Made by a program: the position numbers and the translations under genes. DNA of 64,000 nt. Source: Camelus dromedarius (taxonomy: Eukaryota). Below the pieces are notes generated by a model. That model saw only the letters and a program-made list of their open reading frames with translations, searched no databases and was not told the DNA's origin. The stretch spans positions 15,872,001 to 15,936,000 of the forward strand of contig NC_087436.1 in the NCBI RefSeq assembly GCF_036321535.1, in the 5' to 3' direction. This document shows, piece by piece, positions 2,555-52,835 of this stretch. Position 1 is the first letter of the stretch, and each line of letters opens with the position of its first letter.

Positions 2555-3100
2555 TTTTTTTTTTTTTAATTTTGTTGAAGTACAGTCAGTTACAGTGTGT
2601 CAATTTCTGGTATATAGCATAATGTCCCAGTCATGCATATACATACATATATTCATTTTCATATTCTTTTTCATTAAAGGTATTGAATATAGTTCCCTGT
2701 GCTATACAGAAGAAATTTGGTTTTTATCTTTTTTGTATATAGTGATTAACCTTTGCAAATCTCAAACTCCCGAATTTATCCTTTCCCGTCTCCTTTCCCC
2801 AGTAACCATAAAGTTGTTTACCATGTCTATGAGTCTGTTTCTGCTTTGTAAGTGAGTTCATTCATTTCCTTTTCTTTTTTTTTTTTTCAGATTCCACATA
2901 TGAGTGATAGCATATGATATTTTCTTTCTCTTTCTGGCTTCACTTAGAATGACGATCTCCAGGTCCATCCATGTTGCTGCAAATGACATTATTTTATTCT
3001 TCTTTATGGCTGAGTAGTATTCCATTGTATAAATATACCACAGCTGCTTTATCCAGTCGTTGATGGACATTTAGGTTGCTTCCATGTCTTGGCTATTGTA
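2555..3100 (-). mobile_element. 5'-truncated lineage-specific L1 (ORF2 C-terminus + 3'UTR + polyA)
   Basis: ORF 2858..3070 (DWIKQLWYIYTMEYYSAIKK...FAATWMDLE) is the L1 ORF2 C-terminus; poly-T at 2555-2567. Confidence 0.9.
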
Positions 3101-4066: not shown

Positions 4067-6119
4067 CACACCAGTTTTCATTCAGACATCTTTTAATCTC
4101 ATGTATCATCACATAGTTATGAGAACAGGATTATTAGAAGTTTTTACTCTAAGTTATAAAAAATATTGATTTAGATAGTTTGTTTCTCTTGAAATATTAC
4201 TGTAGCACAAAAAGATTAAACTTGAAAAGACCAATGTAAAATAATTACAGTTTTTGTCCTCTCCATTTGCCACTCCTTTTGACACTATAAGAAGATACTT
4301 GATCAAACTATTAACTTACAGAAAGTGAGTCCATGTAACCTGAACTAAGAGAGAATGTGATACTGAAGCGCTTCAGTGACTGTATATTGCTTCTATTGGA
4401 TGAAATTTCAGGTAGGAAATAATTGCATTGTTTGGTGTCAGGTAGTCAAGTTAGTATATTCCACTTGAGTGCTTTCAGAAAATGAACTACATGAGGGGTC
4501 AGAGAAGCTTTAACAAAAGTTGCTTTAGTCTTAAAATACTTGTTTTTCTTTGAGTGAGAAATGCCTGCATTGTGAAATGCACATTAGAGGAAATATGACC
4601 TCCCCTCGTTTTTTTTAAAAGCATTTCTTCTGACTTTCTTTTAAGATAGAAAATGTGTTGGTTACTGTAAAAAAAAAAAAAAGGCTCAGTTTATGTTACT
4701 TACACAGTTGCCAAGCATATCTAAATGCGTGGTTCATCTTTATTAAATACTAATATGTTGTTTTCCTTTTTTCCCCAGTTTTCGATTTTGCTTCTGTTTA
4801 ACTCTTCTATGGTGTTTATTTATATTTGTCATTGAGAATCATTTTTTGGCTCTTACCCTAATATTTGTTGAAGCTATTTAAATACTGACTTAAATATTTC
4901 TGTTTATTTAAACCATTTGCTAACTTTTTGGGTTATATGTACAAAATTTGAAATTTCGAAGAAGATATTATAATCAAGCCTTTACTGAGTAGCCTGGCTT
5001 TTTAAAGCCATTGCAAAGGCTGATTTTATATTACTTCAAATTCCCATGAGATGGTGCTCATTTGTTTCTTTTTGGTAGTATTGATGCTCTGTAAGATGCT
5101 CATAAAGGACTTTATAAATATATTATAGCTGTAAACTCCTAATTACTTTCTTAGTAATTATTATAGTGTAGAGGTACATTATGCCAGCATGATATAAATC
5201 TGTTACTCATCTTAGTCTAATAGTATTTATTTTCTAATCATTTTTTTCCTAATCTGTTAGTTGGCTAGCATACATTGATTTGCTGTAGGTCTTCAAATGA
5301 ATGATACCTTAAGCACATCTCAGTTTTGACCTTTAACAAAACTTTAGATTGCACCTCTGTTTTTTCATAATGTGTCAGATCTTTTCCCTTTCCTCTTTGG
5401 GCTTAGCCAGTAACTCTTGTAAAACATTAGATGAAATTTAGAGCTCTTTCCTTTTTAACTTGCTGTAGCTATTTGCCGAGTAAACTTCAGTACATCTTAA
5501 GATTAGAAAGAAGATGGTGTTTTGTGATCTGAGTCCTCTAAACTGAGAGCATTCTACTAGTTCCTTGACTTTTATTTTTTTGAATATAGATTTTAATAGG
5601 ACATGAGAAACCAACTGTTTCCAGATTGTTATCCTTGTCCCAGATATTCCTTTTGGAATTATTGAACTTTTATTAAACTTGTATTGATTTGAGAAAAGTG
5701 AACATGGCCTGCATGAGGTAGAAAGAATTGTTCAGAGATAACATCATGAAGAGGCTCAAACTCCTTGAAAGACTGGCCTGACTTAGCATCACGGCCATAC
5801 CACTGAAACAGTCACTACATCTGATGTATGTGCTATTCTGATTGCCTAACCGGTGTCCCAGACCACTGTGTGAAACTGCACTGTGACTGACATCCCTACC
5901 AGGACTACCTGAAGTCAGGCAAGAGTTCCCCAAAAGAACCAGAGGAAGGGGAATATGAAAGCATGTTTACCAGGGAGTGGTGGTAGTAACTGTAAATATA
6001 CATCACCTTTAAGGGTTGCTACAAAGAGGAAATTAGTGAATAAGTGAACACACTTTTAAAATATGCTGTATACTGTAGAGCTTTATAACAGTTTTAATTT
6101 TTTTTTTTTTTGACAGATA

Positions 6120-6300: not shown

Positions 6301-9300
6301 AGTTCCTTCTACTATTTTCCTTCTCAGGAGCTTACAGTCTGGTGGCGACAAGACTCATGTTAAGATAACTAATAATCCAAAGCAGTAAGTGTGAACTCCG
6401 CATGCTTTGGAATAGACAGACTTTATGAGGGGAAATCATTACTTCTTTTTGGTTTCGTCTAGAGGTATCTTTGTAGAGGTGAGAGTTGAGCTTTGAAGGG
6501 AGAACAAAGGTAAGGAAGTAGAATTTTAAAGCTTGTTCTTAGTGGCTTGACTACTAATACTGTATGGGGACAAAATGGGAGGTGAGGCTTTTTGAGATTT
6601 TGTGGGGTAGTCCAAGTGACTGGGAGTTTATTCTGTAGATGATGAGCCATGATGACTCTTGTCCAGGGGTTATTACATGGTCAAAATGCTCTTAGGAAGT
6701 GTGAAATGGTGGCAATGACATGACATTATTAGAATTATGAACTAAATTGGATTATTTTTCAATAAGTTTTTTATGTACATAATATATTACTGATTTTAGT
6801 TCTTATTTATCTGAATTAAATTAGGCTTTCATTAAAAATCAGTGTTTAGCTGATACTTTAGTTTACTAAGTGAATAGTAGATCTCAAATAGCTAATAGGA
6901 GTTAGGTGAAGGCTTATGTTTCTGTGTTGTTTAGATTTCAAGGCCCTGAGCTTGTCTCTGGCCTCAGCCTGGGATTTCTGATGGCAAGATACTGAGAAAG
7001 TCATTTAAATATTAATTCTTACCAAAGCTGTCTAATTTTAACCCTGTCCTTTGTACTTCTGTTTGTTTATGTTGTTAGAAAATGTGTGGTAATAAATGTT
7101 TTGGGAAGTATAGGTTCATTGACTTTAATGTGCTCTTGTTTGGGAATATCTGTTAATTTTGTTAAATACTTCAACTTCTACAGTGTGTGTGTACCTTCCT
7201 GGTTTTATAATGTGTTAAGATCTAGAAAAATCCTGATTTAGTATCTAGACAATTTGATCAATTAAGACTGAACTATCCACATAAGAACAAAAAGAAAAAG
7301 CCTAGCACTTCTGAGAATGAGCTACAGAAATACCACTTGGATGTTTTGCTTTTACTGCATTTATTTTAGAAGTAGCTGATTCATTAAATTCTCCTTCACT
7401 ACCCATCATCCACCACAACCTACACTTTGCATTTCTCTTTCTTTCGGGGGTTAAACACTCCACGTAACACTGAGATGAAAAAAAATGAAGATGAATCATG
7501 TATTAAAGGTCGTTTTTATTGATACTAACGTGTTAGTTGGCTGCAGTATCTGAACTAGCATTAGTGATCTGTGGGATGGTATTTTTCCAGGATTTTTGAG
7601 CTGTCAAATACATATTTTTGTGTAATACTTTATGTAGGTAATACATTAACTGTTCAAAAAAAAAAAAGTCAATATAAATGCTTATCTCCCTCCGACCTCT
7701 GGTCTCCCATGTTTTCAGCATACCTTATCCCTGCTAAATCCTGTCTCACCCAAACTTAAGTCAGTCATGGCTAAAGAAGACCTGAAAAATAACTATTATT
7801 AGTATCTTATATATCCTTTCCAATTTCTGTAGGTTTCTGTAAATATAAAATATTTGTATGTTTAACTTATTTTAAAATGTATATTTCCAAGTTTTTATGT
7901 GAAGATTTGAAAAAGTGGTCTCACAGGAATATTTTAATGTTCAATCCATCTTAGTTATTTCACCATTTTAATTTCTTGCATATTAAAAAATATTTCATTG
8001 TGGTAAGAACACAACATGGGATCTAACCTTTTAACAAATTTTTAAGTTTAGAATATGTATTATTAACTATAGGCACAAAGTTGTACAGCATCATTGGAAC
8101 TTATGCATCTTGCGTAATTGTCCATTATGCAGTTTATGCCCATTCATTAGCAATTACCCATTTCCTCCTTCCCCCAGCCCCCGGCAACCACCATTCTGCT
8201 CTCTGATTCTATGACTTTGACTATTTTAGGTAGTTCGTAGAAGTGGAATCATGCAGTATTTGTCCTTATGTGACTGGATTATTTCACTCAACATAATGTC
8301 TTCAAGTTTCATCCATTTTGTCACATATTGTAGGATTTCCGCCTTTTTTGAGGCTGAATAATACTCCATTGTATTTATAAACACATTTTCTTTTTCCGTT
8401 CATCTGTCAATGGACATTTATATTGTTAGCACATTGAATAATGCTGTAGTGAACATCAGAGTGCTAATACCTCTTCTAGCTCCTGATTTCAATTCTTTTG
8501 AATTAGAAGTGAGATTGCTAGATCATATGGTAGTTCTATTTTTAATTTTTTGAGGAACTTTCATGTCTTCCATAGTGGCTGCACCATTTTGTATTTCTAC
8601 CCACGTGTACAAGGATTCCAGTTTCTTTACGTTCTTGCCAATACATGTTGTCTATTTTGTTTTTTTGAATAATAGCTGTCCTTTTAGTTGTGAGGTGATG
8701 TCTCTTTGCAGTTTTGATTTGCATTTCCCTGATGGTTAGTGCATCTTTTCATACAACTTTTGGTCATTTGTATGTCTGCTTTGCAGAAATGTATTTTCCA
8801 GTCTTTAGTAGCACATTTTTTTTAACATTTTTTTATTGAGTAATAGTCATTTTACAATGTTGTGTCAAATTCTAGTGTAGAGCACAATTTTCAGTTATAC
8901 ATGAACATACATATATTCATTGTCACATTTTTTTTTCACCGTGAGCTACCGCAAGATCTTGTATCTATTTCTCTGTGCTATACAGTATAATCTTGTTTAT
9001 CTATTCTACATTTTAAAATCCCAGTCTGTCCCTTCCCACCCCCTGCCCCCTTGGCAACCACAAGTTCGTATTCTATGTCTATGAGTCTGTTTCTCTTTTG
9101 TATTTATGTTTTTTCTTTAGATTCCACATACGAGTGGTCTCACACGGCATTCCTCCCTCTGCTGGCCTACTTCTCTTAGAATGACATTCTCCAGGGACAT
9201 CCATGTTGCTGCAAATGGCGTTATGTTGTCAGTTTTTGTGGCTGAATAGTATTCCATTCTATAAATATACCTCTTCTTCATCCAGTCATCTATTGATGGA

Positions 9301-9622
9301 CATTTAGGCTGTTTCCATGTCTTGGCTATTGTAAATAGTGCTGCTATAAACATTGGGGTGCAGGTGTCATCCTGAAGTAGGGTTCCTTCTGGATATATGC
9401 CCAGAAGCAGGATTCCTGGGTCATATGGTAAGTCTATTCCTAGTCTTTTGAGGAATCTCCATACTGTTTTCCACAGTGGCTTTCCTTGCTTCCCTCTCCC
9501 ACTCTTAATGATTTGTATGTCTTCTTTTACAATTTTGTGTTTATTCTATTTGTAATTCATGGCACTTATCTCCTTTCCAGTTATGAGTTTCTCATTTTTG
9601 TAACATCCTGCTGCTTTTCTAT

Positions 9623-10523
9623 TTAGAGTACACCTGTGAATATTCCTTTTAGCATGGGTTTAGTGTTGCTAAACTCTTTTAGTTTTTGCTTGTCTGTGAA
9701 GTTCTTTATCTCTCCTTCTATTCTAAAGGATAGCCTTGCTGGATAGAGTATCGTAGGCTGCATCTTTTTTTCATTCAGGACTTTGAATATATCTTGCCAC
9801 TCCCTTCTGGCCTGTAGTGTTTGTGTAGAGAAATCAGCTGAGAGCCTTATGGGGGTTCCCTTGTAACTCACTCTTTGTTTTTCTCCTGTTGCCTTTAGGA
9901 TCATTTCTTTATCCTTGACTCTGGCCATCTTGATTATGATATGTCTTGGTGTGGGTCTATTTGGGTTCTTCCTGTTTGGAACCCTCTGAGCCTCCTGTAC
10001 TTGGATATCTGATTCCTTCTTTAGGTTTGGGAAGTTTTCAGTCATGATTTCTTCAAAGACCTTTTCAATCCCCTTTGTTCTTTCTTCCCCTTCTGGAACC
10101 CCTATTGTGCGTAGATTGGCACGCTTTATGTTATCCCATAGGTCCCTTATATTGTTTTCATTGCTTTTTACTTGTTTTTCTGTCAGCTGTTCTGATTGGG
10201 TGCTTTCTGTTGTCCTGTCTTCTAGGTCACTTATTCATTCCTCTGCATTATCTAGTCTGCTTTGCACAGCCTTTAGGTCAGCTCTCATCTCAGCAAATGA
10301 GTTTACTAATTCTACTTGGTTCTTCTTTATAGCTTCTACTTCATTTTTGATATATTTTATATCTCTAAACACTTTCTTTTAGTTCCTTCAGTACTTTGAT
10401 CAGTCCTGTTTTGAAATCTTGATCTAGTAAGTCATCAATGTCTATTTCCTTGATCATGCTTTCAGGGGATTTCTCTTGATCTTTTAATTGGGAATGGTTC
10501 CTCTGCTTCTTCATATTGCTCAT
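9623..10523 (-). pseudogene. L1 ORF1p (~300 codons) with one frameshift near 10375 and one TGA at 10235-10237
   Basis: MSNMKKQRN...LKELKE, then shifted frame ...RLDNAEE*ISDLEDR...RDLWDNIKRANLRTIGVPEGEE...MTENFPNL...PRHIIIKM...PIRLSADFS...ARREW...YPARLSF, canonical ORF1p motifs. Confidence 0.9.
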
Positions 10524-11645
10524 ATCTCTGGCACTGTGGCCGGTGGGCGGGTGGGTCACTTCGCCTCCCAATGCCCCAGTCAGATGCTGCGCTCAGGTGA
10601 GGCAGGTGGGCAGATCACGCCCCCTCCAAGCACCATGGTCAGGTGCTGCACTCCTGCCAGGAAGATGGGTGGCTGCCCGCCCTCTCCTGGCGCAGGTCAC
10701 TCTGCTGCTCTGTGCAGCTGCCCACTCCGCCTCAGGTTGGCGCTGTGTAGGTGGCTCAGGAAGACCGTGGAACAACTCTGCCCCTGCTCTGTGCCAAATC
10801 TCAGCTCCTTGTTTGTCTTGGCGGCACGAGTTCTCTGAGGTGCCAGGGCAGAAAGATCCTATCTGCCTTGGGCTGTAAACAAGTCTCAGTCTTGCCTAGG
10901 AGGTTGCGGAGCCCCTGGGTGCAGATTCAGGTCTTGGCCCACCCCCGCCTGGGTGCTGCACACAGGAGGAGATGGCACACAGGAGGAGATGGCAGCTGTG
11001 GCTGCAGCCTGCCTCTCTTCTTGCAGGAAGCGCCAGTAATGGCGCCGCGGGTCTGAGGAGACAAAGGCTACAGTGCCCCTCTCCCCAGGGCACACCAGCT
11101 GTGTTGCTTTGCTTTTTTCTCAATTTATGGGGGACCGAGGTTGTTCTGCTCCTTGTATCCCCTCCCAGTCATGGTGCGCAGCACCCTGCAGTCCCCTGGG
11201 GCTGCCTCAGTGCAGCCGCCCCAGTCCTCTGCATGGCTTGGGCGGCCTGTCCCGGCCCCCAGCTGCCGGCTCACATCTTGGGCTGGGTGTCGCAGGGACC
11301 CCTTTGTGCCTGTTTAACTTCGTTCTGTCAGTCAAGGGGTGCTCCAGGCAGATCTGAGCCTCAGAGGCTCCCCTTCTGTCCTGCTGACCTCTTCATTGGA
11401 GAGGGGAGACCCAGTGAACGAGTGCTAGTCCTCCTTTGCCTCTCCCTCTCCGTGGGACCGGGCCTGCACTGTTTTGTTTTTTCTTCTGTTTTTTTCCTTT
11501 TCTCCTACGAGATTTTTGACATTCTGTCTCTGGAAGAGGGCGATGTTCTGTTGGAGTTCGGCAGGTGCTCTGGTTGGCTGAGTGGGTCTGTAGATGTGAG
11601 TTTTGGTGTATTTGTGGGAGAGGGTGAGCTACAAACGTCCTACTC

Positions 11646-11655
11646 CGCCATCTTG
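11646..11655 (-). promoter_or_regulatory. YY1-type motif CAAGATGGCG at the 5' end of the L1 internal promoter
   Basis: Lies 8 nt inside the element 5' end, the position where mammalian L1 5'UTRs carry the YY1 site. Confidence 0.75.
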
Positions 11656-13170
11656 CTTCTCTCAGTAGCACATTTCTTAATTGGACTGTTAAGTTTTTTG
11701 CTGTTGAGTTGTAAGTGTTCCTTATATATTTTGGAAATTAATCCCTTATTTGATAAATGTTTTGCAGATATTTTTTCCCATTCTGTAAGTTGCCTTTCTG
11801 TTTTGTTATTTATTACCTTTTCTTTGTGGGAGTATGTTAGTTGATGTAGTCCTGCTTGTTTATTTTTGCTTTGGTTGCTTGTGTGTTGGTGTCAATCCAA
11901 AATATCATTTCTGAGACCACAGTCCAGGAACTTTTCCCCTACATTTCCTTCTAGCAGTTTATGGTTTTAGATCTTAATTCTTAAATCCATTTTGAGTTGC
12001 TTTGTGTTTGGTGTAAGCTAAGGGTCTGATTTCAGCATATGGATATCCAGTTTTCCCAGCACTATTTGTTGGAGACTGTCCCTTACCCATTGTGTATTTT
12101 TGGTGTATTTGCTGAAGATAAATTGACGTATGTGCATAGATTTATTTGTGGGCTCTCTATTCTGTTCCATTGGCCTATATATCTTTTTTCTTAATGCTAG
12201 TACCATACAGTTTTGATTATTGTGGCTTTGCTATGTAGTGTAGGTCAGGAAGCATGATGCTTCCAGCTTAGTTCTTCTTTCTCAAGATTGCTTTGGCTAT
12301 TTGTGTGGTTCCATTTGAGTTTTAGGATTTTTTTTTCTATTTCTATGAAAAATGCCATTGATAGGAATTTTGATAGGAATTGCATTGAATCTGTAGCTTG
12401 CTTTGTATAGAATGAACTTTTAACAATATTAATTTTTCCAGTCCATGAATATGAGCTATCTTTCCATTTATTTGCATCTTTTTCACTTTCTGTCATCAAT
12501 GCCTTATAGTTTTCAGTGTACAGATCTTTCAGTGCGCAGATCTTTCACCTTTGGTTAAATTTATTCCCAAGTATTTTATTCTTTTTTTTTTTTTTTTTTT
12601 GCTATTGTACATGAGATTGTTTTCTTAATGTCTGTTTGAGGTACTTCATTGTTAGTGTATAGAAATGCAGTTGAATTTTTTAATGTTGATTTTGTATCCT
12701 ATAACTTTTTAATGAATTCATTTATTTTCACAGTTTCGTGGTGGAGTCTTCCAAATTTTCTGGAGGGTCATCTGCAAACAGATAATTTTATTTCTTCCTT
12801 TCTAATTTGGATACCTTTTATTTCTTTTTCTTGTCTAATTTCCGTGGGTAGGCCTCCAGTAATTGTGTTAAATCATGGTGGTGAGAGTGGACACCCTTGC
12901 CTTATTCCTGATATTAGAGGAAAAGCTTTCAGCTTTTTACCAATGAGTATGATCTTAGCTGTGAATTTGTCATATATAGCTTTTATTATGTTGAGGTACA
13001 TTCCTTCTATATCTAATTTATTGAGTTTTTAGGTGTAGAAGTTTGTTAGTTGCTTTTTCTGCATCTATTGAGATGAACACGTGATTTTTTTTCATTTTGT
13101 TCATGTGTTTATTGACTTGCATCCCAGGTATAAATAGGAGCTGATCATGATGTATAATCCTTTTAATGTG

Positions 13171-21786: not shown

Positions 21787-21977
21787 TTTATTTTTATTTT
21801 TGAAACATTTTTTATTGATTTATAATCATTTTACTATATTGTGTCAAATTCCAGTGTAGAGCACAATTTTTCAGTCATACGTGAACGTATATATATATTC
21901 ATTGTCACAGTTTTTTCTCCGTGAGCTACCATAAGATCTTGTATATATTTCCCTGTGCTATATAGTATAATCTTGTT
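21787..21977 (-). mobile_element. 5'-truncated L1 3' end with the same 3'UTR type as the 8819-11663 element
   Basis: Aligns by eye with ~8824-8996 (gtgtcaaatt..agtgtagagcacaa...gtgagctacc..aagatcttgtat); TSD cttaattttta at 21776-21786 and 21978-21988. Confidence 0.88.
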
Positions 21978-22264: not shown

Positions 22265-22785
22265 AACATAATACATATACATACATATATTCATTTTCAT
22301 ATTTTTCATCAAAGGTTATTACAAGATATTGAACATAGCTCCTTGTGCCATACAGAAGAAACTTTTAAAAAAATCTATTTATATATATATATAAATTTAT
22401 ATGTAAATTTCAAACTCCCAAATTTATCCCTTCTCACCCCTTTACTCAGTAACCGTAAGATTGCTTACTATGTCTGGGAGTCTGTTTCTGTTTTGTAGAT
22501 GCATTCAATACTGTCCTTTTTCTCTTCTTTTTTTTAGATTCCACATGAGTGATAGCATATGGTATTTTTCTTTCTCTTCCTGGCTTACTTAACTTAGAAT
22601 GATGATCTCTAAGTCCATCCATGTTGCTGCAAATGGCATTGTTTTATTCTTTTTTATGGCTGAATAGTATTCTATTGTATAAATATACAATTTCTTTATC
22701 CAGTCGTCTGCTGATGGACAGTTAGTTTGCTTTTGTGTCTTGGCTATTGTGTATAGTGCTGCTGTGAACATTGGTGTGCATATAC
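22265..22785 (-). mobile_element. Lineage-specific L1 3' fragment
   Basis: ORF 22589..22771 MFTAALYTIAKT...FAATWMDLEIIILS; 3'UTR similar to 2640-2950. Confidence 0.88.
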
Positions 22786-25069: not shown

Positions 25070-25576
25070 TGTGTGTGTATTAATATATATATTAGTGTGT
25101 ACACACACACACACACACACAATGCAATATTACTCAGCCATATAAAAGGATGAAATAATGCCATTTGTAGCAACATGGATAGACCTAGAGATGATCATAT
25201 TAAGTAAAGTAAGTCAGACAGAGAAAGACAGATAGCATATATCTCTTATATGTGAAATCTAAAAAAAAAAAGACCCAAATGAACTTACTTACAAACCAGA
25301 AATAGGACTCATAGACTTAAAAAACAAACTTTGGTTACCAAAGGGGAAAGGGGTTGAGGGAAGGGATAAATTGGGAGTTTGGGATTAACATGTACGTATT
25401 ACTATATATAAAATAGATAAACAACAAGGACCTGCTGTATAGCACAGGGAACTATATTCAATATCTTGTAATAACCTATAATGGAAAAGAATGTATATAT
25501 GTATAATTGAATCATTTTGCTATACACCCGAAACTAATACAACATTGTAAATCAGCTATACTTCAATTTAAAAAAG
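25070..25576 (+). mobile_element. 5'-truncated L1 3' end inserted in an older MLT1-type LTR (~24775-25780)
   Basis: gcaacatggatagacctagag...gtatagcacagggaactatattcaatatcttg...A-tail; tccttttaaga on both sides. Confidence 0.85.
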
Positions 25577-27884
25577 TTAGCTCCTTTTAAGAGTAATGTG
25601 CAGGGTTGTATATATTACTACCTGTCCTTGGTCAGAACGTGGTCACATGGCTATAACTTCAGGAAAGCTGGGAAGTGAGATACTTCACCTGGGCCCCAGG
25701 TACCAAACTAGTAACTGTTACTATGGAAGAAGAAAATGTAAATTGAGACACATTGCAGTTTGCGTCAGAATGTAATTTTTCTTCAGTTTCTCCCTATTAA
25801 TAAGTTTCAAGTGACTGTAAACAGGTATAGGGTCACATTCATGCAAGAATGGGTTCTTAGGGATAAATTGGATTCCTTGAGATTGGAATTTTTAAAAAGT
25901 CAATACATTTTTCAAGATGTAAATAAATAAAGCTAACTATTTAGTTCATTTTATAAATGAATAGACAGATCCAAAGAAAAAAGCTGATTTGTCACAAGAA
26001 GCAGAAACTACCTAGTTAGAGGCGTAAGCTGTGATTATGCTCTGTCCAGTGCTCCTGCTACATCTCTGAGGAAAAATTTAGCAAGTTTCCAGGGAAAACA
26101 TAGCTTTCCTTTGAAGTATTAGAATTTTCTGTGTATAGGAGTCTTTCCAGTTTTATAAACCTTTTGAAGAGAAGATAATTATTTCTGATCTGAATTTGTT
26201 TTTTGGCTTTTTGAAAATACAGGTGACTTAGGCTTAGTGACTAATTTCAGCTTAAAGCCTTTTATTAATATAATCATTGTGAAGAAAATACTCATTGTGC
26301 CCAATTACAGTCCCTATACAAAACTTCTGAAGGTTTATTTAGATTCTTTGAGTAATAGGCTTTAAAATTTCTATAATCTTGTACATTAAACTATAACCTA
26401 TAGAAAGCATGTTTTGCCACCCTGAAGGTGGCTATAAAAATTGTTTATGAAGTTCAGGCCAAGACTAAAATATGTTGAAGTGGAGAGTTTTGAAAAATGT
26501 TCTATATCGCAAAGGAGACCAAATCATGCTAAAATGCAGAAAGAGACTATACATCAGTTTCCAGCCTACATTATTCAAAAAAAATACAACCATAAAAAAG
26601 GTAATAAGATTACATTTTCACATTTCATGGCTAGTAAAGTGCATTAGGCTGCTCAGATATTCATAACTTACTGTGACATTCGGGAAGATTACATTTTGTA
26701 ATGCACAGCCATTACTACAGCTCAGATAATAACTAGCCAATGCCTGGACCTGGATTATGATCCCTGTCATTGGAAACAAATTTGTGTTTTGAAGGTTGAT
26801 CAAATTCAAATAACTATTAGAAAGGGTTAACATGACATACTGTAGACCCTGTGCATGCTTTTTAGGTATAATAGATATGCATACATATAGTATATCAAAT
26901 ATGCCACATATTTGTATGTACCAATTTCTGCCATCAATTTTCTCCTTGAAAGCCATATTTTATGATATTTAAAGCAATGGAGAAATATTTAAAACACCTG
27001 TCTGGATACTGCTCTCACAGTATAAACTCAATTTAAAAGCTGGTGAAATATTTGGAGGTTTTTTGGAAATTACTTTGAAAAATTAATTCTATAGCTTCTT
27101 GGGAGGGTGGTTACTGATGGTAATAAACACAGATCAAAATGAAACATTGATGTAAGTGGTATTAAGGTGAAGGTAAGGTCTCTTAAGTTAGTTGCAACTA
27201 GGTCTTTGACCTATTTAGATCTGTGTGAAGGATGCCCCAAAGTGTATATATACTAAAAACCCTGCCCTTGTCCTCTTTCCCCAGATGCTCAGTTGCCTTT
27301 TCAGAGGTAATCACAATTTAGTTTCTGGTGTAGCATTCTTAGATATATATCTATATGTATATGTTTTACACTCAAATTGTAACCTACTGTTCATGCTTTT
27401 TTCCACTGCGATTTTTCTCACTTAAACAATATATTTCAGAGATCTTTTTTTATGTCAGATGGAGTTGCCTCATTCTTTTCAATGTGTCGTATTCTATTAT
27501 AGAATTAAATAACTTTACTGACTTTAGATTATAGCTTTTTTTGGGGGGGGTATTGTTTTTTCTGCGTTCCAATAGAAATGCTAAAGTGCAGTTCTTGTAT
27601 GTAACATCATTACCAAAACGTGTCTGTGGAATACATTTTTAGTGGTCGTTAAGGTAGCCATTTGTGTCTGGCTTCTATTTAGCATAATTCTTTTGAGACT
27701 GATTCATGTTGTTAACTATTCAGTAGTTCCATTACCAAATACTTTTCTCATTTATAGTAATTTTTCAGTTTTCCAGATATATATCGTATCATCTGAAAAT
27801 AATTGGAGTGTAAGTCCTCTCTCCTAATATTTATACATGTTGCTGCCTTTTGACTAAATGTGGCTTAATAATTAATAATTTAAA

Positions 27885-36837: not shown

Positions 36838-38300
36838 TTTTTTAAACAGCTTTATTGAGTTATAATCCACATATCATATAGTTCACTCATTTAAAGTGTA
36901 CATTGAATGATTAAGTGTATTCAGCAAGCTGTGCAACCATTATTACAATCAATTTTAGAACGTTTTCATCACACCCAAAAGAAACCCCACAATCATTAGC
37001 AGTCACTGCACATTTCACCCCAAACTCTCAGGCCTAGGTAACCACTCTTCTACTTTCTGTGTCTGTGGATTTGTCTACTCTGGAGACAGATGGAGCCATA
37101 CAATACCTGGACTTTTGTTACTGGCTTTTTCCACTTACCATACTGTTTTCAAGGTCCATTCATGTTGTGACATGTATCAGTGCTTCATTCCTTTTCATGG
37201 CTAATATTCTAAGATAAGAATATACCATATTTTGTTTAATTATTCATTAATTAGTGGATGTTTGAATTAATTCCACTTTTGGGGGCTGCTCTCTGGGCCT
37301 TTGTGTACTAATTTTTATGTGGACATGTATTCATTTCTCTTGTGTATGTACCTAGGAGTGGAATTGTTGAGTCATATTGTTTAACCATATGAGGGACTTC
37401 CAGAGTGTTTTCCAAAGTGGCTGTATTATTTTGCAGTCTCACCTGCAATTTATGAGGGTTCCAGTTTCTCCATATGCTTGTCAACACTTGTTAATGTCTG
37501 TCTGTTTGATTATAGCCCTCCTAGTGGGGATGAAGTTATACCTCCTTGTTTTGTTCTGCATTTCCTTAATGACTGATTATGTTGAGCATCTTTGTATGTC
37601 CTTTTTGGCCATTTGCACGTCTTTGGAGACATACCCATTCAGGTCTTTTGTCCGTTTAAAAATTGCATTTGTCTTTTTAGTATTGAATTGTAAGAATTCT
37701 TTATATATTCTTCTGGATACAAGTTCCTTATCAGATAAATAATTTGCAAATATTTTCTCGCATTCTTTTGTCTTGTTTTTCATTTTCTTGATGGTATCCT
37801 TTAAAGCACAGAAGTTTTTAATTTTAATGAAGTCCAGTTCATTTATTTTTTTTGTTGCTTGTGCATAATTAAGAAGGATTTACCTAACCCAGTGTCATAT
37901 TTACCCTTATTTTTCCTTATAAGAATTTTATAGTTTTGGCTTTCACATTTAGATGCATGATGGACTTGAGGTTAATTTTTTGTATATGATATAAAGAAGT
38001 GGTCAGCTTCATGCTTTTGCTTGTAGATATCAGTTTTTTCAGCACATTTGTTGAAAACACTATTCTTTCCTCATTGAACTGTCTTGACACTGTTGTTGAA
38101 AATTAAGGCACAAACGTAAGAGTTTATTCTGGGCTCTTGATGCCACTCTGTTGGTCTTTATCTGTATCTTTATGCCAATACCACACAATCTTCATTGCTG
38201 TGTCTTTGTGTTATAGGTTTTGAATTTGGTAATTTGAGTCCTCCAACTTTGTTCTTTTTCAAGATTGTTTTGGCTATTTTGTGTCCCTTTCATTCCATAC
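36838..38300 (-). mobile_element. Old L1 (L1MB-like) 3' part
   Basis: ORF 37577..37783 EKIFANYLSDKELVSRRIYKE is ORF2-like; typical 3'UTR. Confidence 0.85.
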
Positions 38301-42595: not shown

Positions 42596-43612
42596 GGTTA
42601 AGTCATTGTTAGTATAGTTTCGTTTCAGGGAGTGATTTAATGTCTGCTGTGTTCCTTTGAAAACAAAATCAACTTTATTGAGTTAATTTACATACAGTTG
42701 GAGTCAATAAAGTATACATATTTTAATTAGTTTGGACAAAAGTGTAACGATGGAATAATCAAGAAATAGAACATTTCTACCACTGCAAAAGTTTCCTGTC
42801 TTCTCCCTCCCAGTCAATTCCTTGTGCTTCTCTAACCCTACCCTGTTCCTGTTGATGATCAGAGCAAACCACTGATCTATTCCCTGTTACTATCAGTAAG
42901 ACTTTTTGTTAATGTTTTATGCAAACAGAATAATCCAATGTGTGCTCCTTGGAGTTTGGCTTCTCTTTAGCATGTTTTTAAGATTCATCTGTGTTGTTTT
43001 GTATTAGTAGTTCCTTCTTGTTGCTAAGTAATCTTCCATTGATTGTATCAATACGTTACAGTTTTTTAACCCATTCATCTGGTGATGGACATTGGGCTAT
43101 TTCTAGGTTTGGCTGTTATGAACAAGCTACTTATGAATATTGGTGTCCAAATCTTTGCGTAGACATGTGTTTTAATTTCATAAATTTATAAAGTAGAATT
43201 GCTAAGTGGTATGGCAACTGAAATTGCCAAGCTCTTTTCCAAGGCAGTTGCACAGTTTTACATTTCTACAAGCAGTGTATGAGCTTTCTACTTACTCCAC
43301 ATCTTTGTTAACACCTGATATTGCTGGCCTTTTTAATATTAGATGTTTGAGTGGGTCTGTAACAGTATATCACCGTGGTTTTAATTTATATCCTTATAAT
43401 GCCTAGAGAGACTGAGTATCTTTTCATGGCTTATTGGCTATTTGTCTATCTTTTTTTTTGTGAAGTGTGTGTTCAAATCTTTTACACATTTTTTTGTGTT
43501 TTTATTGTTGAGTTTTGAGGCTTCTTTATATATTATGGATGTGTCTTTTATCAGATGTATGAGTTAACAAATATTTCCCCCCCCAGTCTGTGTCTTGCCT
43601 TTTTGTTTTCTT

Positions 43613-45929: not shown

Positions 45930-48329
45930 ACGTACGTACATATGTGCTTAGCCTGCGTCAGGTTACCTGAACTTCTTGGTTCTGTGGGTTTCTGGTTTTG
46001 GTCAAATTTTGGCCATTACATCTTTAAATATATTTTGTCTTTTATCTTCTTCTAGAATTCATATTACATTTACTTTAGACCTAGATATAAGCAAACAAAT
46101 CATTGAGGTACTGTTTCTTGTCTGATTTATAAAAAAGTTTTATTTTGGATTGTTTTCATGGCATTATCTTTCTGTTCACCTATCTTTCCTTATCAAATGC
46201 TTGGTTGCTGTAAATTCCATAAGATGAATTCATTTCACATATTTTTTGTATTTTTTTCTGTTGATAAGTTTTGATTCTTTTCATTGTTATCTGTTTTTTC
46301 TTCTTACAAGTTTGTCTTAAAAAAAACTTGACCATAGTTATAACTATTCTAATGTCTTTTTCTTATAATTTCATCATCTTTATTTCTGGGTCTGTTTTTC
46401 TTTACTGACGTTCTCCTGATTGTTTTACACTTCTTGGTTTGTTTAGTAATTTTGGGTTGGCTATTGGGCAATATGATTTTTACCATTTAAGCGTCTGAAT
46501 TTTGTTGCCTTTTTTCTTTTAAAAGAGCATTGGTCTTTGTTCTGCTGTTCAGTAGGTTATTTTCAGTTAAGTTTTTTACTTGAAGTTTGTTTTATTTTGG
46601 AGCTTTGTTAATGGATCTCAGAATAGATTTTTTAGTCTATTCTGAGTGATTTTTTAAAAATAGAAGCTTTATTGAGATACAGTTCATATCTCATACCATT
46701 CACCCGTTTAATATGTATAATTCAGTGCTTTTCAATATATTCAGAGTTGTACAAATATCACTCTCAATGTTACATTGTGTTCATCGCCCCCCTGTGCCAA
46801 AATACTACACTCATCAGTAGTCATTCCCCATTTTTCCTCCTTCCCAGTCCTCAAATTTACTTTCTGTCTCTTTGGATTTGTCTATCCTGGACACTTCATG
46901 TAAATGAAAGAATACAATATGAGATCTTTTGTGGCTGACTTTTTTTTCGATTAGCTTAATGTTTTCAGGGTTCACCCGTGTTTCTTTTTATTACTAAATA
47001 ATATTTTGTTGTGTAGATATGTCACATTTTGTTTATCCATTCATCAATTGATGGACATTGGACTGTTTTCCACCTTTTGGCTATTATGAATAATGCTGCT
47101 AAGAAGCCTTGTGTACAGGTTTTTATGTGGACACATTTTTTTTTCCCTCTTGGGTTTATACCTACAGTGGAATTGCTGGTAATATGGTAACTCTATATTT
47201 AACTATTTGAGAAACTTCCAGATTGTTTTCCAAAGAGGCCACATGATTTTACATTTCTATCGCTTTTTATCAGGATTCCAATTTCTTCATATTTTCTCCA
47301 ATACCTGTTACTATCTGATTTTTCTATTATAGTCATTTTATTGGGTATGAGATGGTATGTCAGTGTGGTTTGGTTTTGATTTGCATTTCCTTCATGATTG
47401 ATAATGTTGAGTAGTTTTTTGTGTGTGTGTTTATAGGCTATACATAATATTTTGAGGGGAATATTTTTTCATATCCTTTGCCCTTTTAAAAACTGAGCTG
47501 CCCTTTTATTGCTAAGTTTTAAGAGGTTTTAAAAAATATTTGTGGTAAAATATACATAAAACTTACTACTTTAAGCATTTGTAAGTGTACAGTATATTAA
47601 TAGCTATTCTTTTCCTCACTTGTATGGTTAGTGATAAAACTACTTAAAGATGATATAAAGTGAGAAATTGATGATCAAAGAATTATTCCTTGCTTTACTT
47701 ACTACTTTTAATTCTATTGTGTAGTATAATACATGCTTTAGATAATTCCTTAAAACTTGTTTAAGATACCTGAGATATGAAAAAATCTTTAAAAGTTTGC
47801 AATTAAGTACTTTAAGGATTAAAAAATATATATTTCAAAAGAAATGAAGGGTTGAATGCTTCTTTTGTATGTTCTTAACGTTTGGTGAAGCACCATATTG
47901 CTTAAAGTCCTTTGAAAGGGCTTTTTTATTTTAATCACATTAAATAGTATTTATACATGCAAACTATTTCCATAAAATTAGCAGCAATTCCTGAAAAATG
48001 TCAAATACTTTGTTTTAACTTTGTTTATATTTAGTTTAGTTTAGAGTGGTTAGTAGGAATGATTTATTCCCAAATTCCACACATAATAGAAAATAAAATG
48101 TTTAGCTATTTCTTTTCAAAACTGGTACTTAAGAATGCTGACATACTGTACTTTGTCATACTGTTCAAAGAGTAAATTATTATTTTTGATTGAACTTGTT
48201 TCCAGTCTCTGCTCTGCCACAAATTAATTTTCTGGACTCAAAGAAATACTGAATCAGAATTCACAAGTTGTTCGAAAAGACATTTCTTATACCTTTAAGT
48301 GGCTACAGTTAATTAAAAAAACACCCTTG

Positions 48330-51300
48330 TCTGTGATTTCTTAGAAATATAATTTAAAAGAGCTATATAAATATGTAGATAAATATAGAATTCTGTAGTA
48401 CTGTAATGTTGGTGCATAAATCACTTAATTTTGGAGACAAGCAAAAAATTTTCTTAATCTATGTTAATGGGTATACAATATAAAAGATAAAATTTTTGAC
48501 ATCAATAATGTAAAGTAGGGTGATGGAGATATAAAAGAACGAAGTTTTTGGTTTGTGGTTAAAGTTGTTACCAGTTTAGAATGTTGTAACTAATTATATA
48601 ATTTCCATCATAACCACAGAGAAAATACTTACAGAAGTTAAATGAAATATAAGGAGAAAGGGATCAAAACATATAAATAGCATATAAAGGGATGAAAGCA
48701 ATTAAATACAAAGGAAAGTAGTTAACAAGTCACAATGAACAAAATGACAATAGTAAATCTTTCCCTTTCAATAGTAACTCTTTAAATAATTATTTTAAAG
48801 GTGAATGGATTAAACTTCCAAAGCAAAAGAAATAGATTGGATGAATGGATTAAAAAACAAGTTCCAACTCTGTTTTGCCTTGGAGACATGCACTGAGGAC
48901 ATATATAGGCTTAAAGTGAAAGGATGGAAAAAGATAGTGCAAATGATAACCAAACGAGAGCAGAGGTAGCTGTACTTATGTTAGAAAAAAATAGGATTTA
49001 AGTCAAAAACTGTTTGTAAGAGATAAAAGAAGAAAATTATATAATGATAAAAGTGTCAGTTCACAAAGAAGATAAAACAATTAAAATATACACCTGGAGC
49101 AGTCCCTTAAAGCCGTCTGAGAGGCTGTCTCCTGAGCTTGAAGTTCTCAGAAAATCCACCCATTAAAACATAATTCTCCAAAAACAAACAAACAAACAAA
49201 CAAACAAACAAACAAACAAAAATATATATATACACACACACCCCTAACATCAGAGCTCCCAGATATATTAAGTAGATATTGACAGAATTGAAGGAAAAAT
49301 TATGCAGAAACACAATAATAGTGCATACTTCAATATGCTACTTTCAATAGTGGACAGAACAACCAGACAGAAGATCAGTAAGCAGAGATCTTAAACGACA
49401 ATATAGATCCATTGCACCTAACAGACATATAAGAACATCTCACCCAGCAACAATAGAGTACACATTCTTCTCAAGCTCACATGGAACCTTCTTTAGGATA
49501 GACCACATATTACCACATAACAAGTCTTAACAAATTTAATAATACTGAACTCATACCAGGTATTTTTTCCCTCACAACAGTGGAATGAAATCAGTAACAA
49601 AAGGAAACTGGAAAATACACAACTATATGGAAATTAAACAACATATTCTTAAAAAACTATTGGATCAAAGAAGAATTCGCAAGGGAAATTAGAAAATATC
49701 TTGAGACAAGTGAACTCTAAAACAACATACCAGAACTTACAGAGAAAGCAGTACTAAGAGGAAAGTTCATAGTGATAAATGCCTACTATAGAAAAAAGAA
49801 GGATCTAAAAATCAATAAATTAAGTCTACACCTCAAGGAACTAGAAAAAGAAGAGTAAACTAAACCCAAAGTTAGCAGAGGAATGGAAGTGATAAAAGGT
49901 TACAGCAGAAATAAATGAATTAGATATTAAAAAAAGACAAGAAAAAATCAGCAAAACTGAGTTTTTTTTTAAAGGAACAACAAAACGGACAAATTCTTAG
50001 GGTAATTAAGAAAAAAAGAGAGGACTTAAGTAATTAAAAGTAGAAATATAAAAGTAGGCATTACTCTTGAATATAATGAATGCCATGAATATAAAAAGAA
50101 TTGTAAGAGACTACTGTGAACAGTTACATGCCAGCAAATTGCATAGCCTAGAAGAAGTAGATATTCCTGGAAACATACAAGCCACCACTACTGAAGACAT
50201 AAAAATCTAAATAGACTATAGCTAGTAAGGAAATGGAATCAGTAATCAAAACCTCTGAATAATGAAAAGCCCAAGACTAGATGGCTTCACTGGAGAACTC
50301 TGTCAAACGTTAAAGAGTTAACACCAATCGTTAACACTCAACTCGTTCAAAAAATAAAGAGGAGGGAACACTTCCAAACTCATTTTATGAGGCCAGCATT
50401 GCTGTGAAAACAGAGCCAAATGAAGATGCTTCAAGAAAAGAAAGCTATAGATAAATACCCCTGATTAATATTAATACAGAAATCCTCAACAGTGTAGTAG
50501 CAAACCAAATTCAAGAGCACATTAAAAGGATTACACCCTATGAACAACTGGGATTTATTTCTGGAATGTGAGGCTGGTTCAACATAGGAAGATAAATCAA
50601 TGTGATACATCACATTAACAGAGTGGAGGACAAAAACTATATGATCATCTCAGTAGATTCAGAGAAACCATTTGATAAAATTCAACACCCTTTCATAATA
50701 AAAACACTCAACAAATTACATGTAAAAAGGAACTGCCTTAAAATTACAAGGCCATGTATGAAAAGCCCATAGCCTAACATCATATACAACAGTGAAAGAC
50801 TAAAATCTTTTTTTTTCTCCAAAATCAGGAACAAGGCAAGAATGCCCACTCTCACCACTTCTATACAACATAACACTGGCTGTCCTGGCCAGAGCAGTTA
50901 GTCAAGAAAGAGGAATAAGACGCATCCACATTAGAAAGGATAGTCAAATTATCTCTGTTCACAGATGACATAATGTATGTAGAAAACCCTAAAGATTTCA
51001 CAAAAAACTGTTAGTCAATAAACAAATTTAGCAAAGTTACAGGATACAGATCCACAACAACAAAAAGTTGCATTTTTATACACTAACAATGAAAAATCTG
51101 TTAAGGAAAATAAGACAATAATCCTATTTATAACAGCAAAAGAGGAATACTTAGGAATAACCTTAACAAAAAGGGCATAAGACTTGTACACTAAAAAGTA
51201 CAAAACATTGCTGAAAAAATTAAGGAAGACACAAATAAATGGAAAGATATGTTTATAGACTGAAAGACTTAATACTGTTAAAAATGCGTATTACTCAAAG

Positions 51301-52835
51301 TTCTGTGTAGATTCAATACAATTTCTATCAATATCCCAATGACCTTTTTTTGCAGAAATAGGAAAACTATCCTAAGATTCTCTTGGATCTCAAGGGTTCT
51401 CAAATAGCCAGAACAATTTTGAAAAAAATTAACAAAGTTAGCAGTCTCACACTTGAGTATTTCAAAACATATTACAAAGCTACAGCAATGAAAACATTAT
51501 GGTGCTTGCATAAAGGTAGATGCATAGTGTAATGGAACAGAGTGGAGTCCAGAAATGAACCTTTAATTTATGGTGAAATGATCTACAAGGATACAAAACC
51601 ATGCAGTGGGGAAAGATTAATCTCTTCAACACATCATGTTTTAAAAAGTGGATACCCACATGGGAAAGAATGAAGTTGGATCCTTACCTTATGCCATGTA
51701 TTAAAATTAGCTCAGAATGGATTAAATACTTAAACATAAGACCTAAATTCCTACATGAAATCAGAAAAGAAGCTTCCTGACATTGACTTTGGCACTGATT
51801 TCTTAGGTATGACACCCCCCAAAAATAGGCAACAAAGGCCCAAATAGACAAATGGGACTTCATCAAACTTAAAATCTTTTGTGCATCAAAACTTTTGTGC
51901 ATCACGGAACAGTGTGAAAAGGAAACCCGTGAAATGGGGGAAAATATTTCAAACCATTTATCTGATAAAGGGTTAATATCCAGAATATATGATGAACCCC
52001 AACAACTCAACACCATCAAAAAAAAAAAACCTCACTTAAAAAGTAGGCAAAGGATTTGAATAGACATTTTCCCAAAGATATATAAGTGGCCAGCCAACAA
52101 GCATATGAAAAGATGCTGAACATCGTTAGTCATCAGAGAAACATAAATCGGAATCACAGTAGATAATTACCTCACACCCATTAGGATGGCCATTGTTAAA
52201 CAAAATCACAGAAAATACGAAGTGTTGGCCAGAGTGTGAAGAAACTAGTCCCTTTATGCACTGTTGGTGGGAATTTAAAATGGAACAGCTCCTACAGAAA
52301 ACAATATGGTGATTCTTCAAGAAATTAGAAGTAGAATTACTACATGATTGAGTAATCTTACTTCTACATATATATATAAAAGACTTGAAAGCAGGATCTG
52401 AAAGAGCTGTATGTACACTCATGTTCACTGCAGCAGCATTCACAATAGCTAAGAGGTTAAAGCGGCCTAATTGTTTGGATGAGTGAATAAAGAAAATGTG
52501 ATATATATTTACAATGGAATATTATTCAGCTTTAAAAAAGAGGGGAATCCTGACACATGCTACAACATGGGTGAATTTTAAGGATGTTATGCCAGTCACA
52601 AAAAGACATTGCATGAATTATATAAAGTAGTCAAATTCATAGAATCAGGAAATAGAATAATGGTTGCCAGAGGATGGGGGAATGCTGAGATGTTATTCAG
52701 TGGGTATAGAATTTCCATTTTGCAAGATGTAAAAGTTCTAGAGATTTGTTATACAACAATGTACTGTAGTTAACACCACTGTACACTTAAAAATGTTTAA
52801 GATGGTAAATTTTGTGTGCTTTTTATCACAATTAA
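48330..52835 (+). mobile_element. Decayed L1 (L1MB-like), near-complete ORF2 + 3'UTR, sense to LRBA
   Basis: A-rich; EN start (aatggattaaac...aaaaga.atagattgg.tgaatggat), RT motifs (gatggcttcactgg, tctgttcacagatgacat = LFxDD), 3'UTR end ...gatggtaaatttt...cacaattaaa. Confidence 0.9.
49095..49220 (+). mobile_element. Short polyadenylated insert resembling an ERV1-type LTR U3/R end, with an (AAAC)n tail
   Basis: 85-nt non-L1 sequence, ATTAAA at 49162-49167, A/(AAAC)n tail from 49180, TT|AAAATATACACC target site. Confidence 0.65.

Follow-up and report, generated by a model that had tools for sequence, protein, structure and literature searches.

Within an older L1 on the same strand, the minus strand of the window (the whole stretch of 64,000 bases analyzed here) carries an L1 derivative of 2,845 bp (8819-11663) that we consider likely to be a decayed full-length copy from a non-autonomous, ORF1-only camelid L1 family, built like rat RNHAL1. 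It probably belongs to a large set of such copies that borrowed the copying enzyme from complete L1s; this way of life is already known from RNHAL1 and other HAL1 families and involves no new mechanism. L1 proteins favour the RNA that encodes them; ORF1-only derivatives that still spread can therefore show which properties turn an RNA into a good target in trans. Selection keeping ORF1 has been proposed for HAL1. If the family is real, it would be young, with both break points readable against a living parent, which would allow a direct test of ORF1 selection; it would also matter for camelid repeat annotation, where each copy would appear as two separate L1 fragments. Should the join turn out to be unique, the element would be an ordinary L1 with an internal deletion.

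Architecture of the element

The boundaries of the element and of its insertion site are given in Table 1. The 12-mer of the target site duplication (TSD) occurs twice in the window, at the two flanks of the element, and this search together with the segment lengths bears out the original prediction of a 2,845-bp minus-strand element between exact 12-bp TSDs. Because the duplication extends to 15 nt with a single mismatch, the cut can be placed at a TT/AAGA site. The A-tail, TSD and L1 endonuclease site indicate that the element was inserted as a unit by the L1 machinery; by themselves they do not show whether deletion or insertion came first. Over the empty site the host L1 is collinear with a second old L1 of the window (68% across 383 columns).

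Table 1. Coordinates of the L1 derivative and its insertion site in the window
Feature	Position	Strand	Remarks
5' TSD	11664..11675	-	12 nt exact; extends to 11678 (15 nt) if one mismatch is allowed
5'UTR	10524..11663	-	1,140 nt, GC-rich
L1 ORF1, broken	9623..10523	-	901 nt; frameshift near 10372-10362, stop at 10237-10235
Inter-ORF spacer, first 142 nt	9481..9622	-	
Deletion join, spacer to ORF2 end	9480..9481	-	1 nt shared sequence
ORF2 remnant, last 364 nt	9117..9480	-	
A-to-G patch at ORF2 end	9128..9180	-	
3'UTR, AATAAA, short A-rich tail	8819..9116	-	298 nt
3' TSD	8807..8818	-	12 nt exact
Older host L1, 3' part of ORF2, split by insertion	8169..13079	-	

Near its start, at the 5' end of the element, the 5'UTR contains the motif AAGATGGCGG, a putative YY1 site. 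Further features are a 17-nt tandem duplication at 10958-10991 and, over 10515-11663, a deficit of CpG (34 observed against ~100 expected). A complete, YY1-bearing, GC-rich 5'UTR of ~1.1 kb had been proposed; its length, composition and motif stand, and its completeness is judged from the terminal motif and the TSD rather than from a camelid L1 consensus. A 12-nt likeness between the 5' end of the element and the spacer beside the join was taken as chance.

The ORF1 region aligns with a 300-residue relative, P0121, in two frames over 10523-9626, with one frame switch and a single stop, in line with its original description as nearly intact. Identity is ~86-88% to P0121, the best relative without a species name, and 87% to a second such relative, P0133; each is a single record without accession. 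Pfam models PF02994 (E 4e-27) and PF17490 (E 2e-23) match one of the four pieces scanned, and together with the P0121 alignment they identify the L1-derived 5'UTR and ORF1 that are typical of half-L1s of the HAL1/RNHAL1 type. A search with ORF1 returned 32 loci from metagenome contigs, of which the closest is 63% identical and none resembles camel sequence, and none of 121 candidates from prokaryote genomes; both collections seemingly lack camelid L1.

Downstream of ORF1 the anatomy agrees with the expected ~140 nt of spacer followed by only the last ~360 nt of ORF2, the 3'UTR and the A-tail: no more than 142 + 364 nt separate ORF1 from the ORF2 stop. The remnant matches the last 121 residues of ORF2 and includes no endonuclease or reverse transcriptase sequence; similarity to ORF2 begins only at PLWK, and the remnant starts four codons past the last Cys of the Cys/His motif. 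An ordinary 5'-truncated L1 loses its 5' end and has a continuous 3' part, whereas here the 5'UTR and ORF1 are present and the middle is absent. An autonomous L1 has two intact ORFs, whereas here ORF1 is broken and ~90% of ORF2 is absent. The arrangement of 5'UTR, ORF1 and 3' end without endonuclease or reverse transcriptase is thus that of HAL1, as originally proposed.

A camelid L1 origin, also anticipated, is supported by the protein matches. Among the 120 listed, nine name Camelus dromedarius (76-86% identical) and those without a species name reach at most 73%; the best named relatives are dromedary L1 proteins. A point against a family is that each of the 120 (9 camel-named) covers at most 92% of the peptide that crosses the join, and that its spacer part was found in none of the 12 relatives inspected from this list. 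At the end of ORF2, A-to-G changes are clustered at 9128-9180; a duplex partner for this patch, sought within the element, gave a best value of -40.0 kcal/mol. As 13 control patches gave values between -11.9 and -43.2, no partner is indicated.

Origin of the join

The spacer meets the ORF2 remnant at 9481/9480. Beyond 9481 the parent L1 continues as TATAGAG and then a T run (41 contigs in DNA run X1, 29 in X2; agreement 0.78 and 0.76). As the parent has no GT donor at the break and only 1 nt there is common to it and the far side, the join is a deletion and not a splice; the removed piece would begin with TA and end with CA, or with AT and GC if shifted by one.

Splicing was our first guess and was dropped once the parent continuation past 9481 had been read. 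In this scenario, which resembles that of human SpIREs, splicing of full-length L1 RNA would have linked the spacer to an acceptor close to the ORF2 end, and the product would have been retrotransposed, many times independently. Intact L1 does read GCAG, which is acceptor-like, just before the retained part of ORF2 (in the host L1, and as VQP in camel proteins), and recurrent splicing would also yield many copies with one join (PMC5860796). SpIREs have splice donor and acceptor ends, however, and the ends of the removed piece, with TATAGAG and the T run at the 5' break, are not GT-AG, GC-AG or AT-AC. We regard a splicing origin as largely refuted and this scenario as very improbable.

Fusion of two parts of one full-length L1 by assembly collapse is extremely unlikely. 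In favour of a collapse, no contig piece among those listed spans the aligned stretch, but the two sides share 1 nt, which leaves an assembler nothing to join on. Moreover, an independent run has a contig across the join, and each of 14 runs contains a fraction of 0.59-0.63 of the sampled words of 8300-12200.

Copy number of the joined form

The join is probably multi-copy, judging from contig depth and one contig with a foreign flank. On the ORF2 side the contig alignment was limited to 24-25 letters, which should exclude contigs consisting of ORF2 alone. In the bin 9457-9471, which lies wholly on the ORF2 side, the summed contig depth is 54,059 in X1 and 32,617 in X2. Single contigs have a median depth of 35.4 (n = 14) in X1 and 27.3 (n = 13) in X2, so the sums are 1,527 and 1,195 times as high; by the alignment program's own warning such a sum is not a copy number. 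Division by 8 for contig overlap gives ~190 (X1) and ~150 (X2) times single-copy. A two-part ramp model puts the joined form at 27% and 32% of spacer-bearing sequence, and the four depth bins used are fitted equally well by a no-family model. Few contigs run over an end (64 of 8,159 and 45 of 3,868) and none of 18 rows listed, from a total of 667, has a loose end behind 9481; ORF2-only contigs were thus apparently not counted.

In RNA run X15 one contig crosses the join, fits to 9494 (13 letters into the spacer) and then continues with 51 foreign letters. A search of the window with the first 20 letters of this flank gave one match, with three mismatches, that does not continue. We interpret this contig, a single one from a single RNA run with no stated host species, as part of a 5'-truncated copy located elsewhere in the genome.

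These data bear on the somewhat unlikely alternative of a one-off or few-copy internally deleted L1, in which reverse transcriptase skipped ~3.8 kb at insertion, or end joining deleted it later, and no family was founded. Such skips and end-joining deletions leave joins with 1 nt of shared sequence, the trace found here. The depth profile can be fitted without a family by parent contigs plus 31-letter ORF2-only contigs with mismatched tails, whose 26 agreeing letters out of 31 exceed the 80% threshold applied; no second genomic copy with flanks and TSD was read, in collections that seemingly lack camelid L1. This account requires, however, that short contigs were accepted despite mismatches at five of the final six letters, whereas elsewhere tails of 8-13 letters were clipped, and it leaves the X15 contig with its other 5' flank to chance or a library chimera. 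The original prediction of a lineage-specific HAL1-type family rather than a one-off gains indirect support from the depth across the join and from the X15 contig, set against the no-family model that fits the depth as well.

A single deleted copy could also have been multiplied passively, by segmental duplication or as part of a larger repeat, and depth across the join would likewise rise. Thousands of contigs match the spacer and the end of ORF1; over 450 positions, the present copy has 6-13 differences from the pooled family. Six of its letters are common to at most ~13% of the aligned depth, so near-identical duplicates of the locus are not common; this and the X15 flank, which differs 13 letters from the join, make passive multiplication highly unlikely.

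Exact 24-letter motifs gave no matches, left of the join in metagenome and viral contigs and across it in prokaryote genomes; camelid L1 is seemingly missing from these collections, so the lack of matches carries no weight. In the raw-read RNA run X21 no reads aligned, which says nothing on expression.

An ATG in the spacer at 9560 is in frame with the ORF2 remnant, with a stop at the fifth codon in the present copy. At that stop, position 9548, a sense codon accounts for 62%, 19% and 39% of the depth in the three runs, not phased with the join. It is improbable, to our mind, that the element represents an uncatalogued camelid half-L1 family making up ~30% of spacer-bearing L1 copies, with source copies that may make ORF1p plus a 147-residue ORF2 C-terminal piece from this ATG, and with the A-to-G patch as a genome-fixed ADAR edit of L1 RNA.

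Proposed history of a probable family

Under the preferred reading of an ORF1-only family, a stretch of ~3.7-3.9 kb that begins in the spacer and reaches almost to the end of ORF2 would have been lost from a camelid L1 with a nearly blunt join, most likely through a template jump in reverse transcription or through deletion at the DNA level. Going by what is established for L1, the retained internal promoter, ORF1, 3'UTR and polyA signal would allow transcription; the RNA would then be bound by the ORF1p that it encodes, and the ORF2p of complete L1s would copy it through target-primed reverse transcription. The present copy carries the marks of that route (A-tail, TSD and TT/AAGA site). Indirectly, contig depth suggests that the joined form may have spread to ~150-1,500 places. 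The frameshift, stop and CpG loss record later decay of the present copy.

Comparison with known systems

The defining paper on HAL1 is reportedly that of Bao and Jurka (2010). A camelid HAL1 name was not found in the published papers searched, a scope distinct from the Repbase and Dfam libraries. The main text of a camel repeat survey, as far as available, has no occurrence of HAL1 or ORF1 (PMC8605555), and its supplements may bear on catalogue status; PMC5203782 has no camelid or HAL1 passage.

Camelid LINE-1 names in Repbase include L1-2_Vpa, according to an excerpt of PMC6726744. The element resembles such L1s in its ORF2 end, which has 76-86% protein identity to gene models of dromedary L1, but it contains neither endonuclease nor reverse transcriptase nor the Cys/His motif. 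Human L1 SpIREs (spliced integrated retrotransposed elements) are likewise TSD-flanked L1 copies missing an internal piece at a fixed place (PMC5860796); they lose the 5'UTR or 5'UTR/ORF1 at splice sites, whereas in the camelid element the loss affects ORF2 and its ends are not splice sites.

HAL1 families are non-autonomous, encode only ORF1p and have several origins in mammals (excerpts of PMC5753468); a named one is pig HAL1_Ssc in Repbase (excerpt of PMC6501411). The camelid element shares the non-autonomous, ORF1p-only design but differs in keeping 364 nt of ORF2 and a native L1 3'UTR, and in its youth, as comparison with the parent still reveals both break points. Rat RNHAL1, with ~7,500 copies, arose from L1 by deletion of ORF2 (passages of PMC2241872). 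In those passages it is, like the camelid element, L1-derived, ORF2-deleted and ORF1-only, with a 5' part near the L1 of its own lineage; the camelid element differs in its separate origin from a camelid L1, its broken ORF1 and a copy number that is only estimated.

Anatomy and Insertion Site

The original prediction placed a minus-strand element of 2845 bp between exact 12-bp TSDs, and this was borne out: the half-L1 candidate comprises 2,845 nt, runs from 11663 down to 8819, and is bounded by two copies of one 12-mer (n = 2 in the whole window). Allowing one mismatch extends the target-site repeat to 15 nt, which makes the target TT/AAGA, one of the usual L1 endonuclease sites. The flanks, rejoined without the element, give an older L1 ORF2 whose alignment to another old L1 in the window is unbroken (383 columns, 68%). 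The measured parts agree with the predicted ~1.1 kb of 5′UTR, ~140 nt of spacer and only ~360 nt of ORF2; the single frameshift and single stop expected in ORF1 lie near 10370 and at 10237-10235. The C-terminal 203 residues of ORF1 match both PF02994 and PF17490, and the element has the anatomy of a HAL1, an ORF1-only half-L1, as proposed.

Parts of the element and neighboring features (window coordinates)
Feature	Position	Length	Strand	Basis
5′UTR		1,140 nt	minus	measured
ORF1	start 10523	901 nt	minus	measured
Spacer		142 nt	minus	measured
ORF2 end		364 nt	minus	measured
3′UTR + tail		298 nt	minus	measured
Exact tandem duplication in 5′UTR	10958-10991	17 nt		
Frame without stops, antisense to 5′UTR	10900-11844	314 codons	plus	
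3′UTR end, same L1 family	21797-21977	181 nt	minus	
Older L1 fragments	2560-3100, 22271-22780, 25119-25579, 37097-37848		both	
Further older L1 fragments	43015-43367, 46968-47426, 49416-52682			

The antisense frame lies in GC-rich sequence and is probably a chance product. The window overall is AT-rich and dense in L1, all the older fragments of the table being spread over both strands; the 3′UTR end in the table is a short 5′-truncated copy, 87% identical.

Nature and Extent of the Deletion

Contigs from 4 of 24 runs were placed on 9457-9906 at 80% likeness: two DNA runs from separate studies (X1 and X2), an RNA run (X15) and a further RNA run as raw reads. Contigs of the parent L1 diverge from the element exactly at 9481 (n = 41 in X1, n = 29 in X2), beyond which the parent reads TATAGAG and then a T run on the element's strand. 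Upstream of the retained ORF2 part, intact L1 has VQP at the protein level and, in the older L1 split by the element (8169-13079), GGTGCA. The two sides of the join (9481/9480) have one A in common. The ends of the removed piece are neither GT-AG, GC-AG nor AT-AC; a splice origin of the SpIRE type, the comparison class for spliced L1s (PMC5860796, in excerpt), fails this defining test and is rejected.

Translated across the join, the peptide matches C-termini of L1 ORF2 in a protein search. Camelus dromedarius is named in 9 of the 120 matches listed (76-86% identity), and alignment to these nine proteins begins only at PLWK of the element peptide. The break point lies four codons past the final Cys in the Cys/His motif; endonuclease, reverse transcriptase and this motif are therefore all gone. 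For comparison, a 6-kb L1 contig of a different mammal (L010) has its ORF1 match ending at 1371 and the corresponding ORF2 end beginning at 4940; in pig, most L1 subfamilies have a 390-529 nt spacer, and ORF2 measures ~3,800 nt (excerpt of PMC6501411). Provided that camelid L1 resembles these, the loss would amount to ~3.7-3.9 kb. Three mammalian L1 proteins in the protein searches (P0103, P0112, P0152) bear the names Escherichia coli and Delftia sp., which likely reflects contamination of those records.

On the minus strand (9117-9560), an ATG in the spacer, at 9560, shares its reading frame with the ORF2 remnant. In the element the fifth codon of this frame is a stop; an alternative letter at 9548 (62%, 19% and 39% of depth in the three runs) gives a sense codon. 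Because this letter is unphased with the join, and a join has a one-in-three chance of being in frame, the joined frame is a lead only.

Near the end of ORF2 (9128-9180, minus), G replaces A at 8/22 positions, compared with 8/85 in the rest of 9040-9300, scored against the majority letter in three older L1 copies from the window (Fisher p 0.004, the patch limits having been picked after looking). Against camel proteins, a single A-to-G change explains 6 of 10 residue changes at 9176-9131 and at most 1 of 8 upstream. G precedes 0/7 changed A with a known neighbor vs. 3/13 unchanged A; numbers are small, and the direction is that of ADAR. A search for a pairing partner brought out none. The patch looks like ADAR editing of RNA ahead of copying.

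Copy Number of the Joined Form

On the ORF2 side the placement stretch was limited to 24-25 letters, a choice meant to keep contigs of ORF2 only from fitting. Summed depth in the bin wholly on that side was 54,059 (X1), 32,617 (X2) and 2,018 (the RNA run X15). Relative to the median single-contig depth (35.4 in X1, n = 14, excluding one value of 192.2; 27.3 in X2, n = 13), this gives ratios of 1,527 and 1,195, or ~190 and ~150 after division by 8 for the overlap of short contigs. A ramp model assigns 27% (X1) and 32% (X2) of spacer-bearing sequence to the joined form. The four depth bins are matched as well by a model with no family, in which ORF2-only contigs of 31 letters are placed along their whole length, mismatched tail included, agreeing with the stretch at 26/31 letters and so exceeding the 80% limit. 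Three observations lean toward a family: no loose ends behind 9481 among the 18 listed of 667, few contigs running over the stretch ends (64/8,159 and 45/3,868), and clipping elsewhere of tails of 8-13 letters.

One X15 contig matches up to 9494, covering the join plus 13 letters of the spacer; past 9494 it has 51 letters not located in the window, where the first 20 of them gave a single hit with 3 mismatches that does not extend (n = 1, alignment itself not displayed). It is most simply read as the joined form, 5′-truncated, at a different locus; a chimera is possible. No second genomic copy came from the metagenome, viral and prokaryote collections scanned, which yielded no camelid L1 whatever. 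Overall, the joined form is probably a multi-copy family.

Age and Subfamilies

Over the 450 nt compared, at least 87% of placed depth has another letter than the element at six positions, and a majority of it does at 11 (X1) or 13 (X2). Divergence from the pooled contigs is 1.3-2.9%, a lower bound because unlike contigs are placed less often. With a mammalian substitution rate near 2 per thousand per million years, the element would be roughly 6-14 million years old. Over 9499-9708, a 215-nt X2 contig of depth 10,497 (~385 single copies) differs from the element at 25 letters; it represents a young, homogeneous L1 subfamily, younger than the element, which lies outside it. At the end of ORF1 (9631-9645, minus), a 15-nt cluster combines three private changes with one split site and alters the last residues.

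Relation to Known Half-L1s

The papers searched for HAL1 together with the names camel, alpaca or Vpa gave no camelid half-L1, nor did excerpts of PMC8605555, PMC6726744, PMC5203782 and PMC13756887. The candidate family may already be catalogued in a repeat library.

With parts, join, insertion marks and decay directly observed, the element is a real camelid L1 copy that retained ORF1 and had ORF2 deleted. The shortened form would have kept promoter, ORF1, 3′UTR and polyA signal and been transcribed; its own ORF1p would have packaged the RNA, and ORF2p from complete L1s would have copied it. Excerpts of the sources describe this mode for rat RNHAL1 (~7,500 copies), whose ORF1p is suggested to improve the RNA as a target (PMC2241872), give ORF1p as the sole protein encoded by HAL1s, which have several origins (PMC5753468), and call their use of L1 machinery likely (PMC4161310; PMC4859970). 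On copy number, depth models with and without a family fit alike; in anatomy the element matches RNHAL1 and HAL1, and we infer that it worked like them.
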